Positions 10,696 through 40,348 of a DNA stretch of 64,000 nucleotides are shown piece after piece. The position numbers were made by a program, and so were the translations under genes. This DNA is from Cyanidioschyzon merolae (taxonomy: Eukaryota). Each line of letters begins with the position of its first letter. The first letter of the stretch is position 1. The notes below the pieces were generated by a model. It was not told the origin of the DNA, made no database searches, and saw only the letters and a program-made list of their open reading frames with translations. The DNA lies in NCBI GenBank assembly GCA_000091205.1, contig AP006502.2. One strand, given 5' to 3'.

Positions 10696-13599
10696 ATGCA
10701 GGGCACAGACGTCCTGGTTCTGCTGCGGGTTTGGAACGCTGAACTCGAGCGAAACGCATCGTGGCTCACACAGCCTCAGGGTGCTCCGGCTGTACCCAAG
10801 TCGGAGGGTGAAAGTGTGGCTGCAGCTCACGCAAAGTACGGCTGCCGAGAACCGGGAGTACACGGCGTACAACGTTCGAGTGAAGGTTGTGGAACGCGGC
10901 CTGCGGAATTCCCGCGAAGGACGTGGCGGAACGAGTGCGGCGCGCTCGGTGGTGGTGGACTCGGGTCGGCGCTTACCACGGCAATCACGGAACAGAATGA
11001 ACGTAGTGAATCTGTGGTGTTTCAGCAAATCAATTCACAACGCCAGTCCGAGGGCTTGGCTCGGGTAAAAGCGGACTCGGGAACGCGTACGCGACCGGGG
11101 AAAGCTGCTACTGTTGCTGCAGCGACCAGTGGACGTCGCACGCCGCGTGCAGAGACTGAGCGTCTGACAGCGTACCAAGAGCTGAAGACTGAAAGCTATA
11201 CTTCCCCGAGCGCTACGCGAGTACCACTCTCCAGACAAATTTTGAGTGCATTGCGTAGCCATGTGAAAGCGATCCCGATGTCTGACGTTCATCGATCCCA
11301 TCGCATGAGATTTCTGCGCCTCTCCAGGGTGCCGCCATGCCCATTAAAGTGCAAGACAGAGGATCTACCGTGGAATATGGGCATCGAGAGAGCGCTTTGC
11401 ACGACCGAGTCCGGTTTGGTGATGCCGCCCGTGGAACCACGCGACAGGGAAGCATTGGGCAGCCCGGAACAGCGCTGGAACTCCAGCGAATCGTATCCTC
11501 CCTTGACATATCGCACGGTACGGGATCCCCAGGTACAAGAGCGATCCAGTTCTGTTGCTGATGCTCGTCGTCGAGTGGTACCGCCGCGGGCAGACTCTGC
11601 GGCGGAGTCGCCCGAGGGCCTCTGCGGTCACAGTGCGCCGCTTCTTGCGGATGATTCGAAGCCGTCTCGACGGGAGATTGCACCGGAGTCCTCGCATTTC
11701 CAGAGAGAGCGGATAGATTTCATCCACGAGTATAATGGTGCGCATGGTGTAGATGGAGCATGTGTCGGTGGCTGCCTTGGGCTAGAAAGAGCACGCGGCC
11801 ACGTGACTGTTACTGGAAGAGAGCATCCGGGGATTGCGCCTCGACCAATTCCTGGAGAGAACAACCCGTGCAAACGCCGCCGCATGGCGGATGACCTTGC
11901 GCAATCCAAATGTCACCGACTCGGAGACATGCTCGGTAATCGTTACCTCTTTATGGATGCCATGGACGCAGAATTGCCGCGGTACATCCTGCTGCTTCCC
12001 CTTTTGGCCCGAGTGTTGGCCGTATCGTGCCCCGGTCTCCACTGCGTGGTGCAGTTTCCGCTCAAGTGGCAACTGGATTTGGCCATGATACAGCGTTCGT
12101 GGTCCGTTGGAGAGGGAAACGCCGGTGATCGCTCGGGCACCATCACATCCCAAATCGAAGGAGAGAACCGGCATCGAGCGTGCGTTCCCAAGAGTTGTAC
12201 ACCGGGCATTTGGCGGGCGCCAAGCCAGCATGCAAGGGCACGAGGAGCAGCTGCACCAACCTGCAGTGCAAGACGATCAGCAGTGCCGCAGCCAAACGAT
12301 TCCGAACGCTCGCCGGACACGGCATCATTCCAAGAAGCGCTGATGAATGCTCTACTTTTACGTGGCTGGCAGCTGCTTGTATTGCCAGCCTCAGATTCGG
12401 AATCGCCACAAGCAGACACGGCAACACTCTCCCTCGCTCAGGTTCATCCACATAGCTGGCGGGTATCCAGTCTACAGGATGGCCAGCTGCTTAGCGGTTG
12501 GCGACGAAATGATGGAGCACCATGCGAGCCACCGTCTCGCTTGCCGTCTTCTGTGTGGAGGCGAGTTCAGAAATTACGCACACGAATCGGGGGCTTCGGC
12601 GCGGAGGTCTCGGCTCCGGACGCCGGATGGTCATACGCTTCGCATTCGAAGCACACCGGCATTCTGAGCTGTGATAATGTCGCTCAACATGTAAGGCCCA
12701 GCTGTGCCGACGACTTGAGATTCTACGTCGCGTACGATAACGGCTCGTCGGTAGAGCTGGTGACCTGCGCCGATCCAGTGCTCTACGGTGTGCGCAAATC
12801 CCGTGTGAACGGTTGCCAGCCAGTGCTGGTTTTTTGTTTCAATCAGCATCATGCTAGTATTGAGCTTGCCGATCTCGTGCTCCCGCTGACCGAAAGCGTA
12901 TATGCGCACGCTCCTGCGTGCGTACCACGTGCGACACGTTTGCCATCACAGCCTAGGCGGTTGCCTTCAAAGGGCATGCGTTCCCATGAGAATGTTCTTG
13001 TCGTCGATATTGGTGCACAACCCGTGGATATGCGGATGGCATTCGACGCCCATCGGGAATCGACTGCTTCGACGAAATCTTCCGCAAATTCGACTCCGTC
13101 TGAAGCGTTGATCACGGAAAATCCCGACACAGATACCGAAAGAAAGATGGAAACCGCTGCGGATCGTCAGAGTCCGTGTTTTAACGGCGATATACCATCG
13201 CGTGGAGGCCCCGATCTGCTCGACCCTGCACGTCGAGCGCAGAGCGCAGATCACGGTCCATTATTGGCCGCAGACGAGCGCCTCGACCATGCGCACATGG
13301 AACGTGTTCATTTTGATGGGAATCCCAACGAGGATGTGTCGGCAGTCGCGAGCGGACAAGAGTCCAGGCCTGTGCAGCCGCGCTCCGACCATCACCGCAG
13401 TTCTACGCAAGAGCACGATGCTGCGCTGCAGCGTACCTCTATGGACTCCCAGCGCGCCGTACCCCAGGCTCCAGATGTGCATCGAGCGCAACGAAGCACC
13501 GAGACCCGCTTTGAGCAGTCCACCGGCTGCGTCTACAAACCATCACTGGGCCAGGCGCTGAATGACACATTCACAACGTGCCGAATGCGACGCACCTGA
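10696..13599 (+). CDS. Large hypothetical protein (967 aa), low-complexity and rich in R/S/A/P, with no domain I can recognise
   Basis: Uninterrupted 2.9-kb ORF with ATG at 10696. No other long ORF overlaps it on the opposite strand, but GC-rich sequence inflates ORF length, so coding status is uncertain. No motif matches were identified by eye. Confidence 0.3.
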   Translation: MQGTDVLVLLRVWNAELERNASWLTQPQGAPAVPKSEGESVAAAHAKYGCREPGVHGVQRSSEGCGTRPAEFPRRTWRNECGALGGGGLGSALTTAITEQNERSESVVFQQINSQRQSEGLARVKADSGTRTRPGKAATVAAATSGRRTPRAETERLTAYQELKTESYTSPSATRVPLSRQILSALRSHVKAIPMSDVHRSHRMRFLRLSRVPPCPLKCKTEDLPWNMGIERALCTTESGLVMPPVEPRDREALGSPEQRWNSSESYPPLTYRTVRDPQVQERSSSVADARRRVVPPRADSAAESPEGLCGHSAPLLADDSKPSRREIAPESSHFQRERIDFIHEYNGAHGVDGACVGGCLGLERARGHVTVTGREHPGIAPRPIPGENNPCKRRRMADDLAQSKCHRLGDMLGNRYLFMDAMDAELPRYILLLPLLARVLAVSCPGLHCVVQFPLKWQLDLAMIQRSWSVGEGNAGDRSGTITSQIEGENRHRACVPKSCTPGIWRAPSQHARARGAAAPTCSARRSAVPQPNDSERSPDTASFQEALMNALLLRGWQLLVLPASDSESPQADTATLSLAQVHPHSWRVSSLQDGQLLSGWRRNDGAPCEPPSRLPSSVWRRVQKLRTRIGGFGAEVSAPDAGWSYASHSKHTGILSCDNVAQHVRPSCADDLRFYVAYDNGSSVELVTCADPVLYGVRKSRVNGCQPVLVFCFNQHHASIELADLVLPLTESVYAHAPACVPRATRLPSQPRRLPSKGMRSHENVLVVDIGAQPVDMRMAFDAHRESTASTKSSANSTPSEALITENPDTDTERKMETAADRQSPCFNGDIPSRGGPDLLDPARRAQSADHGPLLAADERLDHAHMERVHFDGNPNEDVSAVASGQESRPVQPRSDHHRSSTQEHDAALQRTSMDSQRAVPQAPDVHRAQRSTETRFEQSTGCVYKPSLGQALNDTFTTCRMRRT

Positions 13600-19665: not shown

Positions 19666-20964
19666 TCAAAGGAATAGTTGACGCACTTGGGCGTAAACTT
19701 CATCCACAGAGCGTTCTGCTGGGATGCGATGCACGCGCATGCGGCGTTCTAGAAACTCTATGACTGGCATGGTCGTCTCTATAAAAGTGCGAAAGCGCTT
19801 GCGAATAGATTCAGGATTATCATCGGTACGGCCGCTGCTGCGACTGCGCTGCAGGAGGCGGCGCTCCATTTCGGCTTCGGAACACTCGAAGAAAAGGCAA
19901 AAATCAGCGCGGCGGAGTAGACACTCAAAATCTATGGCTTGATCCAATGCACGAGGGAACCCATCGATCAACACACCAGGCACTGCGAGGGTGCTACCCG
20001 CATCAACTAGTTTCTTCCGTAAAAGTTCCAACGTGATATGACCGGGCACAATGGCGCCTTGGCGAATCATCTCGTCAATCAGCTGGCCCTGTTCGGACTG
20101 AGTCTGGATCTCAGCGCGCAGCAGATCACCTGCTGAAACATGCCAAAAACCAAACTCGGCGACGAGTCGGGCGCACTGGGTACCCTTGCCGGCGCCTGGG
20201 CCGCCGAGTACGAAAACCAACCGAGGCGGCAGACGCGCATGACCCTGCAACGAGGCAGCTTCCTGGAGGTACGCACCAAGCCACTCCAAGGGCTGCGCTG
20301 GCTGCGCCATACAAAGTCGGGATAATGCGGTCGTAAGCGTCTCTAGTACGGTGGAGCTCAAGTACGACTTTGCAGCGGAGCCTCCACCGGCCACTTGCTC
20401 GCCGACGACGCGCACTCGTTCGTATATGCGCTCCACTTCTGTTGCATCGTGGAAGCATTTCGCAAGATCACTCGTAATTTGCGTTACATCCCGACTGGTC
20501 CAGACCCCACAGTGCGCCTTATCCACGCCGAAAAGCGCACGAAGGCTTCGGGGCGCCAGGGCGCGGGCTTCAGCGGGGTCTACGGGTCCGCACAACTCGA
20601 GCCACCGTTTCCAGTCTGTCGCCGAAGTCTGCTCCAGAGGCGTTGCCTCTTCGTTCGACAGGAACACCATCTCGACAGGCGGAGTCGCTCTGCGAAGCAC
20701 GACGATCTCAGAACGCCCTTCACACAGCGCAGCGACGTGTTGTTCGTTGTGCACCTCATCGTCTGGGGCAGGCGTCGTGGTCTCGGCGGGCTCAGGTGAA
20801 AGCAGCGCACGCGCTCGTTCGGGCGTCCAGACGACGGTCTGCCGCGCAACCTCGGTCCAACCGTCTGTCTTTCGTGCGTACGCCAGAATCGGATCTTTTC
20901 GATAAAAAGCTTCCGGCTGAATAACGAGCAGCACAAAACCCGGCCAAGTCGTTCGTTGCGTCAT
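19666..20964 (-). CDS. UMP-CMP kinase (adenylate-kinase family) with a ~240-aa N-terminal extension that looks like a divergent nucleoside-diphosphate-kinase (NDK)-fold domain
   Basis: C-terminal domain: P-loop FVLGGPGAGKGTQCARLVAEFGFWHVSAGDLLRAE, then LIDGFPRALDQA and the LID/CMP-binding blocks typical of UMP-CMP kinase. N-terminal region: FVLLVIQPEAF (compare NDK FIAIKPD) ... LCGPVDPAEARALAPRSLRALFGVDKAHCGVWTSRDVTQITSDLAKCF (compare NDK [44 protein letters not shown]). The ORF-track start at 21003 is TTG. The first ATG is at 20962-20964 (MTQRTTWPGFVLLVIQ...). Confidence 0.8.
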   Translation of the reverse strand: MTQRTTWPGFVLLVIQPEAFYRKDPILAYARKTDGWTEVARQTVVWTPERARALLSPEPAETTTPAPDDEVHNEQHVAALCEGRSEIVVLRRATPPVEMVFLSNEEATPLEQTSATDWKRWLELCGPVDPAEARALAPRSLRALFGVDKAHCGVWTSRDVTQITSDLAKCFHDATEVERIYERVRVVGEQVAGGGSAAKSYLSSTVLETLTTALSRLCMAQPAQPLEWLGAYLQEAASLQGHARLPPRLVFVLGGPGAGKGTQCARLVAEFGFWHVSAGDLLRAEIQTQSEQGQLIDEMIRQGAIVPGHITLELLRKKLVDAGSTLAVPGVLIDGFPRALDQAIDFECLLRRADFCLFFECSEAEMERRLLQRSRSSGRTDDNPESIRKRFRTFIETTMPVIEFLERRMRVHRIPAERSVDEVYAQVRQLFL

Positions 20965-21102
20965 ATGCAGTGCAGCTTTGTGGCTGGAGCAGAAATACGG
21001 CAAGTGCTGTAGGCGTCGCTGTGTTGCCTAGTTGCTCGTTTGAAGTCAGTAGCGCATGCGACGCGCGTCATTCGAGCGACTCGCATCGATGGACACGGGA
21101 CA

Positions 21103-21272: not shown

Positions 21273-22757
21273 GGATCGTGCGCGGCACCCGGTTCATCCG
21301 TATGTTCTCGAATGGTTCATTCTACGTAGACGTCAGCGTGGGCGCACAGACGCTGGATCGCAGAGACGTGCATCGCATCGCTGTCGTGGAGGTGTCGACG
21401 TTTCACCAGCACCTCTGCAATGCTTTGCTTGGAAACAGGCACTCGATTCCCCGAAGCGCCGGGTCGCGCGTAGCAGCTTCATGCAACGCCGTTCATCGCG
21501 CATAAAGATGAAGTCAGCATTCGATGACGAGTGTGCGTATGCAGGTTCTGTCGAGAGGGTAGCATCCCCGGAGTCACGACTCGTACACAGCGACATGGTG
21601 ATCGGGGCGTCCATCATTGATCGCTGAGCGTACTCGTAGAGGTGATTAGGTCACGATGACTCGCTCAGTGGAGCGAGCATGAGAGGCGCGGCGCTTCCAG
21701 GACCTTTACGACAGAAAGGGACCGGGACGGAATGTGCCTCAGCGCCTCGTCAACAAATTCGCTGGGTCCCCATATAGCATCCATCCGGGGTCGTTCGTGT
21801 CATTGCGAAATGCACGCCTCCAGTCCCAGTGTGACTGCTCAATCGCAGCATGGCGCATCTGGTTCGAGCAAACGCTGTCCAACGGTGCGAATGGGATGTA
21901 AGACATCACGCCGGATTCGGGTTTTGCTGTTGTCGTGTGATCCGCCGTGTCGTTTCACGTCACATGCATGATCTGACACATGCGGATGAAATGGCCAGTA
22001 AACAACCGGAAAGCGTTCACTTTCTCCGGGTTTCTCATGCCAGCAAAGCTCTTGTTCTTCAGTGACAGGGAACTCCGCATGTGTACCACCCGCAAGCTTC
22101 GAGACGCCAAACTCCGCGCCTCATTTCGTCATCGCGCACCATTGCAGGCTCACAGCGGCACTGCAGCTGTCGCCTGCCCAGCATGGTAAGCAGCGAGGCG
22201 TCCGTGCGTCGCAGCACGTCGCTCTAAGCGGACGCATAGCGCCAACATACGGAGCCTGTGCGCGCCACCGCTACAATGCACGCCGCGCTCGTCCATTGAC
22301 CATGCGCGATGCACTAGACACACGCACGAGGCTACGAAACGACACCACTGCGGCGCGCCACGTAGACACGTGGCGCTCGTGCAGGCTCGCGCAGATGCGC
22401 CAGCGCATGCGATCCGTTGCGTCCGTGATGTTCCACATTATTCCTATTTAGTACATTCATGAAATAAATGGACAATGCACAAAGAACACAGCGCTGGGGT
22501 GGCATGGCGCGCAATTTGGCGCGAAGTCAGCGATGGCGCGCAAACTGGTTGAATACCCGCAACAGCTTCAAGCGCGTTAGGACTCGCCACCACGTATACG
22601 ATACTGTGGTTGCGTCAGTGTTCGTACTCGCGACATGTGGGTGGTCTTTGTGAATCAAGTAAGGCGCACGCATGATGGAATTGATGTATCGAGCCGTGGA
22701 CGCTGGTACTTAAATGCGAACAAGCTCCGGTGCAAGCGGGCTCGGTCGCTTGCGTAT

Positions 22758-25010
22758 ATGACTGTTGTTCGCAGCTTGCCACGGCCACCGGGCTTCTACG
22801 TGACGACGCAGGATGGTGACACGCTTGCGAGTATCGCGTCACGCTATGGCATTGACGCGAAACGTGTTTGGGAGCTGAATAACCGCGCTTCGCGTTTAGA
22901 GTTTAAGCGTGGCAAGTTCCCATTTCTCCCTGGTTTGAAACAGCACGAGGTTTCGAGGCAAGCGCCTTCAGGTGGCGTATCCCTAGAGGAGGCGCTGGAG
23001 CGGCCACTATGTTCTGGGCAACGCATCTTTGTACCGAATGAAACAGTTGCACAGACTGCAAAAGGCGGTAACCTCCATGGGGCTTCCTTGCGCCAAACGG
23101 CACCTCCAAAAACAGTCGAAGCACCTCCGGTTACCCGGACGTTTGTTCCTCCCAAGGCACAGACCACTCCGCAACAGAAATCTTCAGCAGCGATGGGTGC
23201 TCCATCCGCGCCACCGGCCAAGGGTGTCCCGGTTGTAGAGCAGCAGGCACTGCCGCCGTCACCACCATTACAGGGTACGCTCGTTGGCTCGGTTGGGACA
23301 ACGGATTTCTTCCTGGGCGTCTTCGCGGTGCTCGTTGGATTTTATTCGGCGAAGATGATGCTGCCGCGGTCGAATACCGAACCCGGAACGCAGCCAAAGA
23401 CCTCACTCCTAAAGGCCTTGTATAAGAGGCTCGTGGGCTTTCTACAGGCCATGATTACTGTTGCTGTTTTGATTGGGCTCGCGGCAGGCGCGCTAGGCGC
23501 TCGCCTCCGAGCGGCGCTGCTGTTCATCTTTAACGCCTGCACGATACTCTTACGTGGCGTATCGCAGATGATCGTCCTCTTCGGCCAGTTCATGTGCGGC
23601 ATGCTCGGTGTCGTGGCGCTTGCGGTTCAGGGTGTCGTTCAACTGTTCCAACGGCTTGCGCAGGCGGCATTCTTGCTGATCGCGTCGATTTTTTTGGTTA
23701 CGTGGCAGAGCGCGGTACGTCTCTGGTCGGCAGCCTCTACGCGTTCGAGCGCAGTACTAGAGAACATCACCCAGCGCGGGCTGTCACCATCGCTGCCCTC
23801 GGCGGAAACAGGATTGTGGTCTGTACCAGATGAGCGCTCTTCCTCCGTCGACCAGACGGCATCCGAGTCGTTCTTTGGGCTCATTCGGCAATTTTTCTCG
23901 CGGGATTCGGGAAGCGATCTCATTCGCTGCGTTCTTCGTGAACGCACCCAGATCTCGGACGCCTTCGTTCGAATGCGATTCGATCTTCCGGGACCCGACG
24001 ACCAGCTAGTTCTCCAGATGGGTCAACGCATCGAAGTGCATGTTCAGAAAAGCCGCCAAAGTCTCTGGAGTGACGTTCAGCCCCTTGATCAAGCGGAATC
24101 TTCTTGTGGGCTTGGAGCAATCAGGCCGCACCTGCTAGCGGTCGCCAGTGATCGCCATCAGCCTGGTAGCTTCGAGATCATAGTGCCCGTGTCGCACGCA
24201 CTGCAGCAAGTGCTTTGGGAAGCGAGCGACGCAGATAATGCGACGCATTCGGCTGCCGCTGCTCCAATGGACGCCGAGTACGATGGTGCTTTCAGTACAG
24301 GAAGCGATGTCCAGGTCCTGGAGCGGCCATCTACCTCCGACCACGTATTCTCGGCGACGTGCAGTGCAAACAATGACGAGTTCGACGAGCATTTCCTAAT
24401 CGCGCTTGAATCCCTTGTGGAAGGTGTTGATGCTATCCGCGTTCGACCAGCCCCGAATACGGAGCTCATCTACCGTCGCGCGATGAATCCCTCCGCTGGG
24501 ACCGTTGTGGTGCATAACGTTGTGCTCTTAGCATGCGGTCTGGGCATTGTATCCGCGGTGCGCATCGCCGACGAACTCCTACAAGACTCCGAGTCCGCGG
24601 TGAGCCGCATCACGCTAATCTATTATAACGAGCGCGCCCGAGATTTCATCCTCCTCGACGACTTGGAGCGCATGAGCAAAGACCATGGTGAGCGATTCCG
24701 CCTCCATTGTGTTTGGAATGAGAACGCTGGCGCGTACCTTGCCAGCACAGGATTCCCCCGAGCTGCAACGGCTTCCGCTGGTGCGGGTACAAGCGCAACC
24801 GTCGCTGCCGCCGCAGCCAGACGCAACGGCTACGGCCGTGAAAGACGCGCGGCACAGCCGGTGCCTGCTACCGTCCGGGTGATATCGGCCATACCAGCGT
24901 GGACGGAAGGTACAATGGCCATTATCAGCGGGAACGAGTCATTCTCCCAAGAAATGTGGTACGCCTTGGGGGACTCGGGTTACCCGGAGGACGCGATCAC
25001 CTTCATATAA
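22758..25010 (+). CDS. LysM-domain protein with a multi-pass hydrophobic region and a large C-terminal domain of unknown function
   Basis: LysM signature FYVTTQDGDTLASIASRYGIDAKRVWELN near the N-terminus. Then a P/A/Q-rich low-complexity stretch, then predicted TM helices (FLGVFAVLVGFYSAKMML; ITVAVLIGLAAGALGA; IVLFGQFMCGMLGVVALAVQGVV; AAFLLIASIFLVTWQSAV), then ~430 aa with no recognised motif. First ATG used is at 22758 (MTVVRSLP...). The ORF extends upstream to 22635. Confidence 0.55.
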   Translation: MTVVRSLPRPPGFYVTTQDGDTLASIASRYGIDAKRVWELNNRASRLEFKRGKFPFLPGLKQHEVSRQAPSGGVSLEEALERPLCSGQRIFVPNETVAQTAKGGNLHGASLRQTAPPKTVEAPPVTRTFVPPKAQTTPQQKSSAAMGAPSAPPAKGVPVVEQQALPPSPPLQGTLVGSVGTTDFFLGVFAVLVGFYSAKMMLPRSNTEPGTQPKTSLLKALYKRLVGFLQAMITVAVLIGLAAGALGARLRAALLFIFNACTILLRGVSQMIVLFGQFMCGMLGVVALAVQGVVQLFQRLAQAAFLLIASIFLVTWQSAVRLWSAASTRSSAVLENITQRGLSPSLPSAETGLWSVPDERSSSVDQTASESFFGLIRQFFSRDSGSDLIRCVLRERTQISDAFVRMRFDLPGPDDQLVLQMGQRIEVHVQKSRQSLWSDVQPLDQAESSCGLGAIRPHLLAVASDRHQPGSFEIIVPVSHALQQVLWEASDADNATHSAAAAPMDAEYDGAFSTGSDVQVLERPSTSDHVFSATCSANNDEFDEHFLIALESLVEGVDAIRVRPAPNTELIYRRAMNPSAGTVVVHNVVLLACGLGIVSAVRIADELLQDSESAVSRITLIYYNERARDFILLDDLERMSKDHGERFRLHCVWNENAGAYLASTGFPRAATASAGAGTSATVAAAAARRNGYGRERRAAQPVPATVRVISAIPAWTEGTMAIISGNESFSQEMWYALGDSGYPEDAITFI

Positions 25011-25577: not shown

Positions 25578-28500
25578 CTAGGAATGCGTTCGAGTGGGCG
25601 GCATCGCTGCCCCATTGTTGCCGCGCGGCGGAGAAGAAGCCATCTGCTCGAGCGCTTCAAGCTCCGCTACGGTGTTCACGCCCTCTAGACGCCAGAGAAG
25701 ACCGCTTTCTTCACGAACACAATAAACATCGACGTCATAGCCACAGTCCACTGCCATCTGAACGAGATCAGTGGCGTAGTATTCGAAGCGCTCAGGTACA
25801 GGACTCGAACTGCGCACCCGCTGGTTGCCTTTGTCGACTCGATGCGGTAGCGACGCTGCAAGGAGCTGCATCGAAAGCGCACGATCCACCACCATGATGC
25901 CGGAGTAGAATTCTCGAATGGCCAGGATCTGGGCGCCGTCTGGTCGCTGCAGGGCCTCGCGATACTCCACAATGGCGCGCAGGGCGCCGCTCTGGGCGTC
26001 GCGAACAACGCGTCCATAGGCGCCCGCGTCTCTGGACGTATAGCATCCGCTCAAAATGACGCCGAACGTCTGCGATGGCCCGTTTGGATGGGCCGCTGCC
26101 TCACGCTGACGGCTTCGTTGATCTAGCAGTGGTTCCAGAATCGCAGAATCTACCCCTGGATTATCGCCGTAGAGCACGAGTATGTCACCGGAGAACGTCG
26201 AAAGCGTCGAGCACAGGGCCGCATAGAGGGCGTGGCCGGTCCCGAGCGGCTGGCTCTGGCGAACCAGGAGGTACGGGAGCGCGTCAAGCGCTGTTCGGAT
26301 AGCGCCTTCGACAGACTCGTTGCCGACCACGACAGTCGGTATTCCCATGGTGTGGAGCGTCTCCACCACATGTCGAAGCATGGGTTTGCCACAGAACGAA
26401 TGCACGACCTTGGGGTACGCAGCGCGGAACCGAGTACCTCGTCCCGCGGCGAGCACGATACCGACCACAGCAGCACTTTGGAGTTGCGCTTGCCAGGCGG
26501 ATGCTGGCCCCAACTCGCCAGCGTCTGCCTCAGCCAAAAGCGCACCAGCTACTTCCAAATCGCCCAATCTCGAGGTTTCCGCCAGGCGAATGCCGAATGA
26601 ACCACTTTCAAGGTGTCGGAGTTCATTCTCTGACAGCGACGTGGCCACCTGCTCCAAGATTTGTCGAAGCCGCGACCGCAGCAGCCTTTCTAGCCGACGG
26701 GCGAGCGTTTTGGCGACCTCACCCTCCAGGGCGGTTGAACTGACTTCCACGCGTATCCGCCAGAACGGCTGTGTGCGCGACGGACGTACCAGCACGCTCA
26801 CAGCGTCCTCAATCGACACATCTGGAAATTCCAGCTGAATCCGTTGTAGTTGCTCATCGATGAGGGCCGTTTGCACCCATTCCGGATCTAAGACGCGAGT
26901 TTCGTCTGCAGTGTAGCGCCAGTTTGCTGCGGCGTAGCGACTCGCCTGGCGCAGAAGCGGTGTTTCCATGTCATGCTCTGTGAGCTGCGCGTTCACCACT
27001 TCGCTGTGTCCAGCCGAAGCAAACACCTCTAAACGTTCTAATAAATGCGTGACTGGCTCCGTACGAAGCAGCGCCTCCATCGTAAGTAAGGTGGCAACGC
27101 CGTCGCTGCCCGCGGGGTTCGCCAATCGCGCCAACGATACGATGCATTCAGCAGCGTACCGCGCTTCCCGCGTCAGGGGCGTGCTCACGTCCCGCAACAA
27201 CAACTCGTAGAGCTGACGCTGCACCAGAGGTGCCACGTAACAACCAACATGTCCATTCGGCTCGGCATAGACGGCGAGATTAAAGCAGCGCTCGACGATA
27301 TCGCGGCCGTACTGAGCGCCTGTGGGCACCAGCACCAGGTTGCCATCGCAGAGCGCACGGATTCGCTCGCGATACACACGTCTGCAGTAAGCTGTTAGCG
27401 CACAGCCGAACGATAGTCGGGGCAGTACTTGTATGGGTGTAGTTGTTGTTTCCGGGGCCGCCACGAGCAACTGGACGCAGCGGCGCAGGAATGCAACCAA
27501 ACAGAGCGCTATCCAGTCACCGTCGTAGACTACGATGGATGAAATCGATGATGCCTCTTTCGTTCGACCCGCTGAACGCTGCTCGGATGATGCGTAGTAG
27601 ACCAGGCGATCCGCATCGCCGTCCAGAGCCGCCATGCGGTCGCCCGACACGAGACAACGGAAGTCATCGCCGTGTCCAGCGTGCTGGTGGATGTACTCAG
27701 CCCCGCAGCGCTCGTTCACGGCCTGCGACTCCTCATGTCGATGCGTCGTGCTCAGCGGAAACGATAATAGCGATGATACCTCCGCAAGCACCACCGAAGC
27801 TGATCCATATGCGCAATCAACTCGAAGTCTCGTCGTCGAGTCGACTGCGCCCGATCCAGTCACCTCGGGATCCCGTTGCAGCGCTCGACAAAGCGCATGG
27901 TACCCTTTGACGAGCCGTTCGTGGACATAGGCATCAAAGGTACTCAATCGTCCATTTTGCGATGCCCAGACTGCGTACTGCGTGAATGGTGTGGTGGTGA
28001 GGCCCAGATTTCGCACCCCCGAGCACTGCGTCGCTCGTAGCAAGACTTCTAAAGCTACCTGTGCGAGACGAGCGGAACTCGGACGATTGTCGTAGCCGAG
28101 GATGACGACACCACCGCGCCCGGACTTGTCGTCGATGCTTGAGCCTGCCGCTCCCGGGAGAGTCGCGGTTTTCTCGGCGGCGGCCGGTTCCCTGCCATGA
28201 AGCATTCGATGCGCTAGGCGGTGGAACAGGGAACCAAGAGCCACAGCCCTCGGTGCATGAATCGGTACCGTCAGCGTTTCCACGTTCATTCCGTCGAAAG
28301 AGTCGTTATTCGCGGAATCTGTTGGTGGTGCCAGCGTCTCCTGCAGCAGGTCTGCGAAGAACTCTCCCAGCAAGGGGTGCGGCGTATCCTGGAGGTGCGC
28401 TTGCAACAGACCCCCGTCGCTGCGCACAACCTTGACGCCGTTCTCACTTGACGGGTTGTGGGAAGCAGTTATCATCAGGCCCAGTACACACTTTCGAAAA

Positions 28501-28928
28501 GAAGCGACCAGCGCGACGACAGCTGCGGCTCGGGCGACAACAGCGTCCAAAGCGGGTCCGTCGCGTACGCGGACGCCTGCACCGGTATAACGCACGGCTT
28601 CTGTGAGCGGGTATCGATTGGAAAGCCAGTTTGCGAGCTCGTGAAAGGGATAGGGAGAAGCATCGGTCGTGTTTAGACATTGACCGGCTTCGGAACGTTC
28701 CCCTAACGAGCAGAGCGTGGCACGTCCGACACCGCCAGCGAGCTTGCAGGGTCGCAACCGCACGCTGCGAGGCGGTGCGCGACCACGGAGCCTAGTTTGG
28801 TGCCTCGTTATAGGACGAAGCTGAGGCGAAACCGTTCGTCGACTTGCAACCAGGGCCAAGTCAGGGACCAGGCCGCTTGCCCCGAACATGAAGTGTACTC
28901 GGTGCGAAAAATCGATGGCGAGCGTCAT
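25578..28928 (-). CDS. Bifunctional fusion: phosphoacetylglucosamine mutase (AGM1/PGM3-type alpha-D-phosphohexomutase) followed by a GlmU-type N-acetylglucosamine-1-phosphate uridylyltransferase N-terminal domain, with no LbH acetyltransferase domain
   Basis: Mutase part (approx. 26705-28610): YTGAGVR (compare YGTAGFR), active-site loop GLMITASHNPSSENGVKVV (AGM1 signature GVMITASHNP..DNGVK), Mg-binding LDGDADRLVYY, sugar-binding AEPNGHVG, phosphate-binding LVRPSRTQ (compare RPSGTE). Uridylyltransferase part (approx. 25638-26471): VGIVLAAGRGTRFRAAYPKVVHSFCGKPMLRHV (compare GlmU LAAGKGTRM.S.LPKVLH.LAGK.M..HV), QPLGTGHA, ILVLYGDNP, YGRVVRD...AIVEY, FEYYATD (compare GEYYxTD), LEGVNT. The longest ORF extends to 29372 (GTG). 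Plausible ATGs are at 28926-28928 (MTLAID...) and 28887-28889 (MFGASGLVP...), about 100 aa before the first conserved mutase block, so an N-terminal targeting extension is possible. Confidence 0.8.
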   Translation of the reverse strand: MTLAIDFSHRVHFMFGASGLVPDLALVASRRTVSPQLRPITRHQTRLRGRAPPRSVRLRPCKLAGGVGRATLCSLGERSEAGQCLNTTDASPYPFHELANWLSNRYPLTEAVRYTGAGVRVRDGPALDAVVARAAAVVALVASFRKCVLGLMITASHNPSSENGVKVVRSDGGLLQAHLQDTPHPLLGEFFADLLQETLAPPTDSANNDSFDGMNVETLTVPIHAPRAVALGSLFHRLAHRMLHGREPAAAEKTATLPGAAGSSIDDKSGRGGVVILGYDNRPSSARLAQVALEVLLRATQCSGVRNLGLTTTPFTQYAVWASQNGRLSTFDAYVHERLVKGYHALCRALQRDPEVTGSGAVDSTTRLRVDCAYGSASVVLAEVSSLLSFPLSTTHRHEESQAVNERCGAEYIHQHAGHGDDFRCLVSGDRMAALDGDADRLVYYASSEQRSAGRTKEASSISSIVVYDGDWIALCLVAFLRRCVQLLVAAPETTTTPIQVLPRLSFGCALTAYCRRVYRERIRALCDGNLVLVPTGAQYGRDIVERCFNLAVYAEPNGHVGCYVAPLVQRQLYELLLRDVSTPLTREARYAAECIVSLARLANPAGSDGVATLLTMEALLRTEPVTHLLERLEVFASAGHSEVVNAQLTEHDMETPLLRQASRYAAANWRYTADETRVLDPEWVQTALIDEQLQRIQLEFPDVSIEDAVSVLVRPSRTQPFWRIRVEVSSTALEGEVAKTLARRLERLLRSRLRQILEQVATSLSENELRHLESGSFGIRLAETSRLGDLEVAGALLAEADAGELGPASAWQAQLQSAAVVGIVLAAGRGTRFRAAYPKVVHSFCGKPMLRHVVETLHTMGIPTVVVGNESVEGAIRTALDALPYLLVRQSQPLGTGHALYAALCSTLSTFSGDILVLYGDNPGVDSAILEPLLDQRSRQREAAAHPNGPSQTFGVILSGCYTSRDAGAYGRVVRDAQSGALRAIVEYREALQRPDGAQILAIREFYSGIMVVDRALSMQLLAASLPHRVDKGNQRVRSSSPVPERFEYYATDLVQMAVDCGYDVDVYCVREESGLLWRLEGVNTVAELEALEQMASSPPRGNNGAAMPPTRTHS

Positions 28929-30713
28929 CGCCTGTGCGCACAAGCTCACTGGCGATGTTCGCTTAGGACCCGTCCCGTTCCGAATAACTTCCTGTTGGGT
29001 TCCGCATGAAAGATTTCCTGCTGGACGCTGTGATCTTCGTTGTGTCGAGAGGGTTCCGTGGGAGCTTGGACTTTGGGTGCAGTTATGGAATACGGAGACC
29101 AGTGGGGCTATGCATAGACCCCTGCAAACAAGTGCTGAGCATTTCCAGGAGGAATCGTATGCGCGCGCAGTCTGTTGCAGGTTCGGTGGACGCCCATTCG
29201 TGGTCAGCGCTTTCTCGGGTATGAGTAGCGTCGCATGCTGCCCGTTCGCCCTTGTTGAAGAGCCGGAACTCGACACGCGAGGAAGCGTCGACTCAACGAT
29301 GGATCCGATTGTTCTGAAAACGTACATATATGTACAATGGACAGATCGCTGTACTGTAATGCGTGCGCGCACGGAAGCAGTGCACGCTTCGACCGAGTCT
29401 TCGGTGCGTTCGATTCTTCGCGAAAAATAAAGATATTTATCATTTACAATTCACTGGACTGCACGCGTGCACAAGGGCGCAGCATCGACAGCGCGCCGTT
29501 CAAATCGCCGGGTCAAGCGCCGAGCGCTCCGGGTCGCCCGCTTCAGCAGCGCGTTTTTCTCACTGTTCGCCGTTGCCGCAGCGCTGCCTCCAAATGGGCG
29601 AGACAGGGCGCTCCGAAATGTACCGACTGCTTGCGTTCGAAATGAGTAGACTCAAACTGACTATGGAACGGTTGGGTGAGACTCTGGACCGTACCGATGC
29701 AACGACAGCGGCAGCGATAGGTTTTGTGTTGTTGGGCACGCAACTGAGCGTGGGCGCGCGCTGTGCTCTCCAGACAGCCCCAGCGCAACGATCCGTCGAG
29801 TCCACGTCACAGGACGCCTCTGAGCTGGCAACTGAGGAGTAAACGCGTTGTGTGCGCGCGATTACGACTTAAAAAAGTGCCATGAACGCGTTGCATCCCG
29901 CAGAGGATATGCATCGGAGTGTAGGCGGGTCGAATGGGCGGTGCTTCCGGCTTGTTTGTAAGCGGGGGCGCACCACTGCGCCGCCCAGCTCTGAACAAAG
30001 TGCCAAGATCGTGCGGACACCTGCCGCTGTTATTGGAGGTGCAGAATCGGGCGACTCGCTGCAGCCGCACCGGGCCGGCATTCCCCGGAAGAAAGCTCCG
30101 CCAGCGCATCCACCAAAGCGAGGTCGCGTGGCGTGCGAGCTCCGCGCCCCAAGCCACAGAGGTTTGAAAATCCTTCATGGTCTCGTCAAGCGTGCTGCTC
30201 TCTGGTGAAAGCCGGTCGGCATGTACGCAGTCCACCTCCGTGTTGTTCTTCAAATCGCGCCTGATAACATCCATAGTTTACGGTGACGAGGTGCCTTTGC
30301 CAGAGTCGGAACGCTGGCGCACTGCCAGAATGTTTCCCTGGGCCATGCATTGCTTAAGAGCAGTCATCCTAGAATAAATCCAAGACCCAGACTTTGAGCC
30401 TCGCTTCACAATGAATCAAATGCAAGTATCGTCTCCAGAGCATCTTGCAGCGCTCGATTCGCGGGAGCTTGTTTCCGCTGACGGACGTTTTCGGTCGACC
30501 GACAACAAGTGACGCAGCATAGTCTCTGTTCCAGCGACTTTGTGCGATACGAACGGGCTTAACAAACGAGCACCTCATCGTCGAACCTGATGCGGTGTTA
30601 CCAGAACTGTCTCTGAGGCAGTCCGGCGTCTCTATGTAAAACACGCGCCTCCACTTCGCTCATTGGCAGTGTGAAAAGTCTACGAGCAGCGCTCGGTTTT
30701 CACGTCGCTTTCG

Positions 30714-31370
30714 ATGACAGCGAACCTGGCGGCAACCGACGACTGGGGTGAGCTCCTCGACGTCCTGGACCCGGGGGATCCAACCGGCTCCCGGGTGATA
30801 GCACGCTACGATCGGTTACGCGTTCACCGCGAAGGGCTGCTTCACCGTTCGGTGCACGTGTGCGTGGTACGCTCCGTGCCCGACTGGCCCGCCCAGGTGC
30901 ACGGTCTGCGCAATACCAACTACAAGCTTCTGCTTCAGCGACGGAGCGAGTCCAAGGCGATTGCTCCCGGCTGTTGGGACCTATCCTGCGCAGAGCACTT
31001 GCGCGCCGGCGAGTCCTTCGAAGGAGCTGCTGTGCGGGGCCTGCAGGAAGAGCTCGGTCTAGCGCTTGCACCGGACCAGCAGACGACGCCAATACATGCC
31101 CTTGACGACGGAGAGCCGGCCTTGCAGCTCTACGACTATCCGAGCGTCGGCTTAACGGACTATGAATGGAATCGAATTTACGTAGTGTTCGTTACGGACC
31201 AGGCTGATGAGGCCCTGGCCAAACTCAAACTCGATTCCGCGGAAGTTGCTCAAGTTCGGTGGATTACCCGCGAGTCGCTCCAAATGGAACTTGCAGAGAA
31301 TCCATCGCATTTCACTCCGTGGTTTCGAGATCAGGCTCGAAAGCATCTCTTACCCAGTGCGTACAACTGA
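30714..31370 (+). CDS. IDI: Isopentenyl-diphosphate delta-isomerase, type I (Nudix-fold IDI)
   Basis: LLHRSVHVCVVR...KLLLQRRSESKAIAPGCWDLSCAEHLRAGESFEGAAVRGLQEELGL aligns with IDI (LHLAFSSWLFN...[45 protein letters not shown]), including the catalytic Cys and the Nudix-like GES..E....R...ELG block. DYEWNRIY corresponds to the ENEV metal/Glu motif, and SPW/TPWF is near the C-terminus. ATG at 30714. An AATAAA hexamer lies ~70 nt past the stop codon, at 31437-31442. Confidence 0.75.
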   Translation: MTANLAATDDWGELLDVLDPGDPTGSRVIARYDRLRVHREGLLHRSVHVCVVRSVPDWPAQVHGLRNTNYKLLLQRRSESKAIAPGCWDLSCAEHLRAGESFEGAAVRGLQEELGLALAPDQQTTPIHALDDGEPALQLYDYPSVGLTDYEWNRIYVVFVTDQADEALAKLKLDSAEVAQVRWITRESLQMELAENPSHFTPWFRDQARKHLLPSAYN

Positions 31371-38248: not shown

Positions 38249-40348
38249 CTAACGGTCAGCAAGGCCTAGCCTGTCTGCTTTGGAAAGAAAGCACCACGGA
38301 CGCACCGAAGGTGGCTTTTCTAGGGCGTCACCGGGGTATGCGTCCTGGTGAACAACCCCATCTTTCGGTGCAGGCCAGGCTTCGAGATGCTGCCAAGCGC
38401 TGCCCAGCCGGGAGGCAAGCGCTGCTGGCATCTCGCTCAGGCGGCCGTCACGAGCCTGGAAAAGGCGCGCAGACAGCGCGCCTCGCGGCATCAGGGTTCG
38501 TTTGTCGGTCTCAGCGTGTAATGTAGCCGCTGCTGCCCCGGTCTGGGATAGAAACGCCTCCCAGTGAAGCATCGCGAATGGCGAAAGCGGCCCTTTGAAT
38601 TCGAGCGTGACCGAGTAAGACGGAGTGCAGTCTCGCGGTCCAGTCGAGGAACACGGATGTGATACTTCATCGCCGGCCAGTAACACGTCATCATCGCCGA
38701 TGAATGTATAGTCGGTCAGTACGAGACTTGCACCCATGAACGGAACGTCACTCGAGGCCAGCAAAAGCGGCACATCCGTATTTGAAAACAACCAAGGCCC
38801 AAAATGCAGAAGGAGCTCAAAGAGACCCTGAACGTTTCCGGCGCCACGAACGACAACTGGACAAGAGCGTGACCTGGCAGCGTCAACTGGCTGCGACATC
38901 CAGTCCTTCTCAAATGTCGCATCCGCGCGCATAAAGTGCGGTGAAACTGCAGGTCGCACACTGCGCTGATCTCCTAGCACATCATACTGTACTGCAAAGA
39001 TAGAGTCGAGTAGGTTGCGAACCCGCTCTGTCGTATGGGACATAAAACCAAACGGCAGCGCGAGATTTCGCTGTTTCTCTTCTTTCATCGACTGGGTGTT
39101 CGCATTGGCGCCCATCGACGAGGGTGCCTTTTTCTGATCGCCGCCGCAGTTGCCCTGACGTGGAGCCGTCTCCAGTCCCGATATCCAGCCAAAGGTCGCC
39201 CAGTAATGATCACCAACCACATGGAAACCCGTGGATCGAGCCAAGGTCTCGGGCGGAGTGCATTGCGCAGCTCTTCGATACACACGGTACAGGGGCAGAA
39301 ACGCTTGGCGCCAACGCGAGATGCGTTGTTGCCACCACTGCAAGGCAGGAAGCTCGCAATTCGTCGATAAATGCATATTCCAGCCTGCCAAGTCCTCCAA
39401 CAACAATGGAAGCGTCTGAGGCTGTGGCGACAAGCCTGCCGAGAGTCTGCGATCCGCAGCAGCACCAGCCTGTGAAGCTCGAGCGCCATCACTTTTATTC
39501 GGCAGTTGCGTACCACGTTGCGGCCGTCGCACGCCTGGATGCCAGAGTTGCTGGAAGTCAAACTCCTCCTCATGCAACGCACGGTGGGCTAGGCTCAGGC
39601 GCCGCACCCAGGACCAGGCGCGCTTCTGTTCTGGGCCAGCCGCCGCAGCGGGAAAGCAGTAACACGACATGGCCCTCACAGCTGGCCCAACAGGGTCGAG
39701 GTTGTACCCTCGCGCTTGTCTGCTTTCAGCGATCGATGCGACGGCGTGCAAACGACGCATAGAGCGTACGCACTCGAGCGCACGCTTTCGGTCAACGAAC
39801 CGCAGGGTCATTCGTATGCAGCGCCGAAGCACCAGATCGCCTGGTATATGGGTACAGGGTGCTGGTCCTCGGTTGGGGAGACCCTCCTCGCGTTCGTCCG
39901 GGGGAAACTCGGGTGGCGTTTCCGGTTGCCTACTCGGTGATGCCTCGAGAAGGCTTGCGTCTATCCGCGCAAGCGACTCCTCAAGAACGCTAGAGTGATT
40001 CGTGTAAACTAAAGAGCTACGTTCTTCCCATCCTGTGGACGTTCCTTGCCAACAATCTTCGACATCCAAGCTGCTCGCTGGTTTTTGTAGTTCGTTCGCT
40101 GACCAGACCGGCTCGTTCGAGTCTCGACCACTGTCTGTGGCGCGTCTAGCTTCCCGTCGGCGCTTGTACTCTAGCGCCGTCAGCGTTTCGATTTCTTCAG
40201 CTTCTAAGTCAGCTTTCATAAGCTCATCATCATTACGAAGAGGTGAAGCCCTCGAATCCGTCAACGTCCCCGAAGAGGCGCTCCTGGAAGGACACTGTCG
40301 TTTTTGGTATCTCGCCTGGAATGAGTGCCGGCGCTGGCCAGTATGCAT
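38249..40348 (-). CDS. Hypothetical protein (699 aa) with no recognisable domain
   Basis: Uninterrupted ORF with ATG confirmed at 40346-40348 on the minus strand. Composition is less low-complexity than the 10696 ORF, with blocks such as LLLHFGPWLFSNTDVPLLLASSDVPFMGASLVLTDYTFIGDDDVLLAGDEV. No family was assigned. Confidence 0.4.
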   Translation of the reverse strand: MHTGQRRHSFQARYQKRQCPSRSASSGTLTDSRASPLRNDDELMKADLEAEEIETLTALEYKRRREARRATDSGRDSNEPVWSANELQKPASSLDVEDCWQGTSTGWEERSSLVYTNHSSVLEESLARIDASLLEASPSRQPETPPEFPPDEREEGLPNRGPAPCTHIPGDLVLRRCIRMTLRFVDRKRALECVRSMRRLHAVASIAESRQARGYNLDPVGPAVRAMSCYCFPAAAAGPEQKRAWSWVRRLSLAHRALHEEEFDFQQLWHPGVRRPQRGTQLPNKSDGARASQAGAAADRRLSAGLSPQPQTLPLLLEDLAGWNMHLSTNCELPALQWWQQRISRWRQAFLPLYRVYRRAAQCTPPETLARSTGFHVVGDHYWATFGWISGLETAPRQGNCGGDQKKAPSSMGANANTQSMKEEKQRNLALPFGFMSHTTERVRNLLDSIFAVQYDVLGDQRSVRPAVSPHFMRADATFEKDWMSQPVDAARSRSCPVVVRGAGNVQGLFELLLHFGPWLFSNTDVPLLLASSDVPFMGASLVLTDYTFIGDDDVLLAGDEVSHPCSSTGPRDCTPSYSVTLEFKGPLSPFAMLHWEAFLSQTGAAAATLHAETDKRTLMPRGALSARLFQARDGRLSEMPAALASRLGSAWQHLEAWPAPKDGVVHQDAYPGDALEKPPSVRPWCFLSKADRLGLADR

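Follow-up and report, generated by a model that had tools for sequence, protein, structure and literature searches.

An AGM1-type mutase joined to a GlmU-type uridylyltransferase domain in Cyanidioschyzon merolae, a probable two-step enzyme of UDP-N-acetylglucosamine synthesis

By the textbook account, eukaryotes make UDP-GlcNAc (uridine diphosphate N-acetylglucosamine) with UAP1 and bacteria with GlmU. A stretch of 64,000 nucleotides from Cyanidioschyzon merolae (contig AP006502.2 of assembly GCA_000091205.1; the whole stretch is hereafter called the window) raises the question of how far this division holds, as one long open reading frame (ORF) on its minus strand encodes an AGM1-type phosphoacetylglucosamine mutase followed by a uridylyltransferase domain of the GlmU type. 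We consider it very probable that the product is a bifunctional enzyme of UDP-GlcNAc synthesis, taking N-acetylglucosamine 6-phosphate (GlcNAc-6-P) to GlcNAc-1-P and from there to UDP-GlcNAc. The AGM1/PGM3-type module would convert GlcNAc-6-P to GlcNAc-1-P by way of phospho-Ser304 and a bisphosphate intermediate, and the GlmU-type module would condense GlcNAc-1-P with uridine triphosphate to yield UDP-GlcNAc and pyrophosphate. The two halves stand in pathway order in the translation, AGM1 first and the GlmU N-domain (GlmU-N) second, as a preliminary description of the locus had noticed. The transferase module would have lost, or would never have possessed, the acetyltransferase β-helix, and since the protein has no acetyltransferase domain, acetylation would have to occur earlier, at glucosamine 6-phosphate (GlcN-6-P), as in the eukaryotic route.

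The ORF is a nuclear gene of C. merolae 10D. It is uninterrupted from its GTG to the stop codon (25578-29372 on the minus strand, 1264 codons plus the stop), with no internal stop and no frameshift, and the residue numbers used here are counted from the start at 29372. The protein deposited for strain 10D (BAM83103.1, XP_005539139.1, UniRef100_M1VMA7; 1249 amino acids, on a 1.62-Mb record) is identical to the translation at 1249 of 1249 residues in a BLASTP comparison beginning at Met16, and the sole difference is the 15 extra upstream codons of the raw ORF. It is one member of a cluster of 100% identity that a homology search brought up, and in its record the product is called 'UDP-N-acetylglucosamine pyrophosphorylase fused with phosphoacetylglucosamine mutase'. 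The preliminary description did not recognise the architecture as a described one, and in this it was mistaken, since the identical protein had long been in the databases, with the fusion spelt out in its name. The fusion itself is already known from GenBank, RefSeq and UniProt, and both halves had been recognised by the genome annotators. A literature search, made in the searchable library, returned no paper that deals with this fusion or with enzymes of the GlmU type in glaucophytes or red algae, and the sole paper found with both 'Cyanidioschyzon' and 'UDP-N-acetylglucosamine pyrophosphorylase' is about apicomplexan trehalose genes.

A single reading frame is not necessarily a single protein. 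We find it highly improbable that the ORF is an artefact of assembly or annotation, or that its halves are made separately by means of an internal start, proteolysis of the linker or separate transcripts. An explanation of this kind could draw on the linker, which is poorly conserved (residues 901-964), on the stand-alone homologues that start exactly at a conserved element in the linker, and on an older annotation of Cyanidiococcus that splits the gene (KAF6002017.1, 533 amino acids, 'Phosphoglucomutase-3'). The ORF is, however, continuous in the finished genome of strain 10D and also in L003, an independent contig from an environmental strain. The two sequences show 99.48% identity over 4823 bp and 0 indels, and 13 substitutions lie in the core of the gene, 10 of them at third codon positions. 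At about 50% protein identity, one ORF is also kept in the proteins P0002 and P0143 and in Cyanidiococcus yangmingshanensis (KAK4532415.1, and the longer P0022), and the frame is held in four cyanidiophyte lineages across linkers that differ in length. With a Cyanophora gene model and a Rhodelphis entry whose identifier looks transcript-derived (Rmarinus@m.940), the fused ORF is intact in at least six lineages, and the single ORF that was first reported from the window is a real one. There is moreover no in-frame Met in the translation between residue 802 (window 26969) and residue 998 (window 26381), the latter already 25 residues into the transferase domain, and the second half therefore lacks a start of its own. 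Almost all genes of C. merolae are intron-less.

The two deposited Cyanidiococcus models, KAF6002017.1 and KAK4532415.1, both look truncated. The newer one, KAK4532415.1 (953 amino acids), covers both halves and starts inside the phosphoserine loop (MITASHNP), and a version of 1213 amino acids is found in a sequencing-run assembly (P0022).

The C-terminal half is of the GlmU type. Eleven GlmU equivalog models of NCBIfam match residues 968-1245 and no others, corresponding to model positions from about 4 to about 240 out of about 452 (best E 1.6e-34, over positions 4-236), and Pfam places NTP_transf_3 at residues 971-1101 (E 6.6e-17) and NTP_transf_3 and NTP_transferase together at 971-1107. 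The NCBIfam range is the one that had been predicted from the letters of the sequence (about 968-1245). The scores are far under the cut-offs for full-length GlmU, e.g. 119.5 bits against 366.85 for TIGR01173, because the β-helix half is missing. Neither the Pfam nor the NCBIfam scan gave a Hexapep or left-handed β-helix match anywhere in the ORF, and as the GlmU match also ends at about position 240 of 452, the domain is GlmU-N-like and not a GlmU. The absence of the acetyltransferase domain, which had been proposed before, is in this way borne out.

Structures lead to the same family. The closest solved structure of the C-terminal part is GlmU 2v0h (E 1.3e-19, over GlmU residues 5-237), and the proteins nearest to the C-terminal 300 amino acids, among 5.8 billion searched, are bona fide bacterial GlmU with 32-38% identity. 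An AlphaFold model of the domain, made from a 70-sequence alignment, has a predicted local distance difference test score (pLDDT) of 90, and when it was compared with the PDB by Foldseek the top 37 matches were all GlmU (E 5e-23 to 1e-14), with GalU, GDP-mannose pyrophosphorylase, ST0452 and MurU trailing from about 1e-12. The earlier proposal that this half is GlmU-type, and not a mannose-1-phosphate guanylyltransferase or a member of another family, accordingly stands on profile models, on sequence matches in the PDB and on fold matches. Mannose-1-phosphate guanylyltransferase, GalU, RmlA, MurU and IspD/MobA were all rejected as identities for the domain, at least 10 orders of magnitude worse than GlmU. 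A UDPGP-family domain gave no match in the ORF in the Pfam scan at E up to 0.1, and in C. merolae the uridylylation step appears to be performed by the GlmU-type domain. The AlphaFold model of the full-length protein, made from a 4-sequence alignment, has a pLDDT of 34 and is unusable; nothing on the packing of the domains, or on a possible channelling between them, is taken from it.

For the N-terminal half, the closest solved structures are those of AGM1 from Aspergillus fumigatus (4bju, E 1.8e-17) and Candida albicans (2dka, E 2.9e-12), and GlmM structures match only at E 2.6e-6, about 11 orders of magnitude behind AGM1. Pfam finds PGM_PMM_I at residues 284-325 (E 2.7e-14), AMG1_III at 617-771 (E 1.5e-6, 28.5 bits against a cut-off of 27.1) and a weak PGM_PMM_IV at 859-891, which agrees with the range of about 255-890 predicted earlier for the mutase; AMG1_II was undetected in the ORF by the same scan. 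The AGM1 structures, together with the AMG1_III match, support the proposal that this half is AGM1-type and not a generic PGM/PMM. Both a generic PGM/PMM and a GlmM were rejected as its identity, with far weaker scores than AGM1. For the two halves of the protein alike, the match scores lie well outside what chance would give. The four mutase loops, as well as the transferase motifs quoted in the preliminary description, are all found in their given places, and Ser304 in the first loop is presumed to be the catalytic phosphoserine. Eight canonical AGM1 representatives have the sugar loop EANGHG (EPNGHG in one of them) and the phosphate loop RPSGTE, and Rhodelphis has RASGTE as its phosphate loop. 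In the Cyanidioschyzon group the Gly of this loop is Arg or Gln in all four sequences, the sister lineages reading RPSRTE or RPSQTE. Judged by the spacing of the loops against Rhodelphis and canonical AGM1, the C. merolae half is about 110 amino acids longer, with insertions between the catalytic loops. Rhodelphis and Cyanophora have AGM1 halves of the canonical kind, with AMG1_III at E 1e-50 or lower, whereas that of C. merolae is highly diverged.

The catalytic residues are almost all in place. In the transferase half, the nucleotide-binding signature LAAGRGTRFRAAYPK fits L-x2-G-x-G-T-x-M-x4-P-K with the Met replaced by Phe, and the further motifs LGTGHA, LVLYGD, EYYATD and LEGVN are seen. 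All columns that do not vary among the N-domains of 49 bacterial GlmU are retained (R981, K988, Q1039, G1044, T1045, D1070, G1120, E1197, D1202 and N1233), among them the equivalents of GlmU Arg18, Lys25, Gln76, Asp105 and Asn227 (R981, K988, Q1039, D1070 and N1233, respectively). E1136 is retained as well; 48 of the 49 have Glu in that column. With so few catalytic residues changed in either half, both look catalytically competent, with substrate pockets that seem to have been remodelled in a lineage-specific way. A decayed half, serving the other as a non-catalytic scaffold or regulatory domain, is something we regard as scarcely credible. The mutase half could be suspected of it, being strongly divergent with insertions and a non-canonical phosphate loop, but its four loops are retained, as are the invariant residues of the transferase half, and all of these are invariant among orthologues at about 50% overall identity, a sign that catalysis is under selection in the one half as in the other.

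A more serious question is whether the sugar is the right one. The same architecture could act on another sugar phosphate in one or both halves, for instance from GlcN-6-P through GlcN-1-P to UDP-GlcN, or in the glucose or N-acetylgalactosamine series. The position equivalent to the GlcNAc-contacting Asn169 of GlmU is a Tyr, the phosphate and sugar loops of the mutase deviate from canonical AGM1, the mutase half as a whole is strongly diverged, and enzymes of the GlmU fold and of the ST0452 type can be promiscuous for sugar-1-phosphates. The Tyr is, however, limited to three close lineages (C. merolae, P0002 and Cyanidiococcus), and all other eukaryotic members of the family, i.e. P0143, Rhodelphis, Cyanophora and all the stand-alone red-algal proteins described below, keep the Asn in the form EFNSG. 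The remaining contacts to GlcNAc and uridine are retained (Q1039, T1045, Y1068, G1120, E1136, E1197 and N1233), and GlmU and AGM1, as the best matches by sequence and by fold, lead the GalU, GMPP and RmlA types by about 10 orders of magnitude. On balance we think that another sugar is unlikely.

Some of these features nevertheless weigh against a two-step synthesis of UDP-GlcNAc, and should be seen together. The Asn169 equivalent is Tyr in C. merolae and its two closest relatives, the mutase reads RPSRTQ in its phosphate loop, in place of RPSGTE, and EPNGHV in its sugar loop, and the mutase half is very divergent, with an AMG1_III score of 1.4 bits over the cut-off, no detected AMG1_II and about 110 extra residues. 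GlmU normally trimerises through the β-helix that is missing here, and the literature search found no enzymology for any member of the family. All this leaves room for an altered specificity or a lowered activity of either half. A bifunctional enzyme that makes UDP-GlcNAc is still the most rational explanation of a protein in which two consecutive steps follow each other in this manner.

The fusion is not restricted to C. merolae. A profile search with the full-length alignment, exhaustive over 1.84 billion representatives, together with the sequences already mentioned, gives the same fusion in the same order in C. merolae, Cyanidiococcus, P0002, P0143, Rhodelphis marinus (EP00736_P000065, 866 amino acids) and Cyanophora paradoxa (tig00001206_g7496.t1, 925 amino acids). 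In the last two, Pfam finds AMG1_II and AMG1_III (E 1e-50 and 1e-55) and then NTP_transf_3. In the full-length profile search, stand-alone proteins of 320-440 amino acids also outscore every bacterial GlmU, and with a profile of the domain about 30 clusters score 230-452 bits, C. merolae itself 325 bits and bacteria at most 172 bits. All stand-alone members that carry a name come from red algae, namely Gracilaria domingensis, Agarophyton chilense, Galdieria sulphuraria, G. partita and G. yellowstonensis, and further Porphyridium purpureum (KAA8498821.1), Timspurckia oligopyrenoides and a fragment from Cyanidium caldarium. UniRef labels these stand-alone relatives 'UDP-N-acetylglucosamine diphosphorylase'. 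The stand-alone gene of Galdieria sulphuraria has no AGM1 neighbour, and a split-gene artefact was on that ground rejected for Galdieria. An assignment of P0143 to Cyanidium caldarium was likewise rejected, the Cyanidium fragment being only 40% identical to it.

In a neighbour-joining (NJ) tree, the eukaryotic GlmU-N-like sequences group together as a single clade in all 100 bootstraps, with a support of 100 for the Cyanidioschyzon group and of 68 for Rhodelphis with Cyanophora. The clade shares the motifs LAAGxGxRF, (Y/C)(A/G)DNPG, EF(N/Y)SG, E(Y/F)YATD and EGxNT, and before the domain the element [S/T/P]-L-x-x-[F/Y], and C. merolae qualifies as a member. This element lies about 50 residues upstream of LAAGxG in fused and free proteins alike, and the free proteins begin at it; in C. 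merolae it falls within the linker, in a degenerate form (RLGDLEV). Its position at the boundary in both kinds of protein fits one old fusion followed by fissions, or else repeated fusion at the same boundary. No bacterial donor could be pointed out, since neither the NJ tree nor the profile search gave a supported sister group, and the nearest bacteria are a taxonomic mixture at about 35% identity. Judged by its sequence, the C. merolae domain belongs to a uridylyltransferase family that is derived from bacteria and confined to red algae, Rhodelphis and Cyanophora, a glaucophyte.

The N-termini of the free proteins vary. Those of Porphyridium, Timspurckia and Gracilaria begin directly at the pre-domain element, and the stand-alone protein of Galdieria yellowstonensis (P0148, KAK4528291.1) has a hydrophobic N-terminal segment, MMLLWGSLALIGIYLITW, that resembles a membrane anchor. 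Four members (P0146, P0147, P0153 and P0309), which nest among mesophilic red algae in the NJ tree, have N-terminal extensions of 240-390 residues that are of low complexity, acidic or proline-rich, and the first three of them start with MTHEAP. Their contigs (locus L002:8001-9608), from sequencing-run assemblies, are eukaryotic and intron-poor, with Pex14 and ribosomal L10 as neighbours. A further protein, P0161 (507 amino acids), consists of two GlmU-N-like domains in tandem, preceded by a hydrophobic N-terminus that resembles a signal.

The C. merolae protein has an N-terminal extension too. Its residues 162-240 hold 13 R/K against 4 D/E, and the extensions of P0002 and P0143 are of similar length and composition and of unrelated sequence. 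Basic and not conserved in sequence, the segment fits an organellar presequence, and this is what it may be, as the preliminary description had proposed. The fused protein of Rhodelphis has no N-terminal extension, and that of Cyanophora has one of about 95 residues that begins with MPFVSLL; an N-terminal Phe is typical of glaucophyte transit peptides. The part further upstream (residues 16-161) has no significant similarity to the N-terminus of Cyanidiococcus (best E 0.45), and the environmental strain differs from C. merolae by 2 substitutions in residues 1-161, both at codon position 1 or 2, which are too few to decide on its translation.

It is conceivable, although we would call it doubtful, that the fusion is ancient in Archaeplastida, i.e. 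that the bacterial domain was captured before red algae, Rhodelphis and glaucophytes parted and that fission took place later in Galdieria and the mesophilic red algae. It would then be their UDP-GlcNAc pyrophosphorylase, or an organelle-directed one that could feed UDP-GlcNAc to the plastid. We hypothesize that the demand in the plastid would come from peptidoglycan in Cyanophora and, in Cyanidiales, from a lipid-A-type pathway, to which the presumably plastid-encoded glmS, lpxA and lpxC would point.

The features of the gene are collected in Table 1.

Table 1. Features of the fusion gene, with residues counted from the first codon of the ORF and positions given in the window
Feature	Residues	Window position	Strand	Remark
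Complete ORF		25578..29372	-	1264 codons; first codon GTG
Start of the deposited coding sequence, Met16	16	29327	-	GenBank record
Alternative start Met149 (MTLAI)	149	28928	-	In-frame Met; start chosen in the preliminary description
Alternative start Met162 (MFGASG)	162	28889	-	Used by prokaryotic gene callers (P0001)
Stretch before the basic extension	16-161	28890..29327	-	Coding according to GenBank; not conserved; translation uncertain
Basic Ser/Thr/Pro/Arg-rich extension	162-240	28653..28889	-	Precedes the mutase core
AGM1-type phosphoacetylglucosamine mutase	~241-900	26673..28652	-	From Pfam, PDB matches and loop spacing
Phosphoserine loop TASHNP	302-307	28452..28469	-	Invariant in all orthologues
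Metal-binding loop DGDADR	584-589	27606..27623	-	Invariant in orthologues
Sugar-binding loop EPNGH (EPNGHV)	704-708	27249..27263	-	Core E-x-N-G-H kept
Phosphate-binding loop RPSRTQ	863-868	26769..26786	-	Arg, Ser and Thr kept; Gly to Arg, Glu to Gln
Linker	901-964	26481..26672	-	Predicted helical (from the low-confidence full-length model), then poorly conserved
GlmU-type N-acetylglucosamine-1-phosphate uridylyltransferase domain	965-1250	25623..26480	-	Ends where the helical arm of GlmU begins
Nucleotide-binding signature LAAGRGTRFRAAYPK	974-988	26409..26453	-	GlmU Arg18 is R981, Lys25 is K988
Tyr1156 at the position of GlmU Asn169 (NTG), a GlcNAc contact	1156	25905..25907	-	Column in 49 bacterial GlmU: 41 Asn, 5 Tyr

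The G+C content is about 57%, and the ORFs that surround the gene are eukaryotic and include MCM8, an adenylate kinase, a PAP-fibrillin and a LysM/FNR-like protein. The latter (22635-25010 on the plus strand, 791 amino acids) lies tail to tail with the fusion gene, and has an N-terminal LysM, a long hydrophobic middle and a C-terminal part resembling FAD_binding_6 and ferredoxin reductase. LysM is a module that binds glycans containing GlcNAc, and its combination with a ferredoxin-reductase-like part is odd for an alga without a wall; the ORF lies beside a gene for UDP-GlcNAc synthesis. The head-to-head neighbour (30714-31370 on the plus strand) encodes a NUDIX-fold protein of 218 amino acids, which among solved structures comes nearest to isopentenyl-diphosphate isomerases, with no better than E ~2e-7, and the pair that it forms with the fusion gene is kept in the environmental contig. 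The adenylate kinase (19666-21003 on the minus strand) carries a Dpy-30 motif, a combination linked to ciliary and flagellar adenylate kinases; C. merolae has no flagella. Two long ORFs, at 10696-13599 on the plus strand (967 amino acids) and at 38249-40348 on the minus strand (699 amino acids), are without a match in Pfam at E up to 0.001.

What can be added to the deposited record is that the Cyanidioschyzon group, Rhodelphis and Cyanophora all conserve the fusion, that its catalytic residues are largely intact, and that red algae as a whole carry a distinct GlmU-type uridylyltransferase of bacterial derivation. This is a modestly interesting lead in comparative biochemistry and not a discovery. 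The textbook division between UAP1 and GlmU breaks down for red algae, Rhodelphis and one glaucophyte, which have a uridylyltransferase of the GlmU type, often joined to AGM1. If they have no other enzyme for the step, this would be non-orthologous displacement in a clean form, within an essential pathway, and at the same time a natural 'Rosetta-stone' fusion of consecutive steps. Should the protein be targeted to an organelle, it would bear on how UDP-GlcNAc is supplied to envelope-glycan pathways in the plastids of early-branching algae. A compact two-step biocatalyst for UDP-GlcNAc from a thermoacidophile might also be of practical use.

Compared with known systems, the protein takes its parts from different sides. 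With AGM1/PGM3 (2DKA, 4BJU), its best sequence match over residues from about 241 to 900, it has in common the loops TASHNP and DGDADR, the cores E-x-N-G-H and R-P-S-x-T of the other two loops and an AMG1_III match that lies just over the cut-off, and it differs in the roughly 110 extra residues, the RPSRTQ loop and the missing AMG1_II match, and in that it adds an N-terminal extension of about 75-225 residues and the uridylyltransferase domain at the C-terminus. Bacterial GlmU (1HV9, 2V0H, 1G97) resembles its C-terminal 286 residues in the N-terminal fold, in the signature L-x2-G-x-G-T-x-(M/F)-x4-P-K and in the catalytic and ligand residues, whereas the C. merolae domain is without the β-helix domain for acetyltransfer and trimerisation, has a Tyr in place of Asn169 and resides in a eukaryote. 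The fusion partner is also another one, a mutase on the N-terminal side in C. merolae and an acetyltransferase on the C-terminal side in bacterial GlmU. UAP1/AGX1/QRI1 of the UDPGP family catalyses the reaction that the C-terminal half would perform, but this is a functional analogy only, as it is another protein family and a separate gene in yeast, animals and plants. A comparable architecture is found in a metagenomic protein of prokaryotic type (P0004, 733 amino acids), in which a truncated GlmU-N without the β-helix is followed by an archaeal-type GlmM. Here too a hexosamine-phosphate mutase is joined to a β-helix-less GlmU uridylyltransferase domain, but the order is reversed, the mutase is GlmM-type and not AGM1-type, and the transferase domain is only 30% identical to that of C. 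merolae, and it looks like an independent, analogous fusion.

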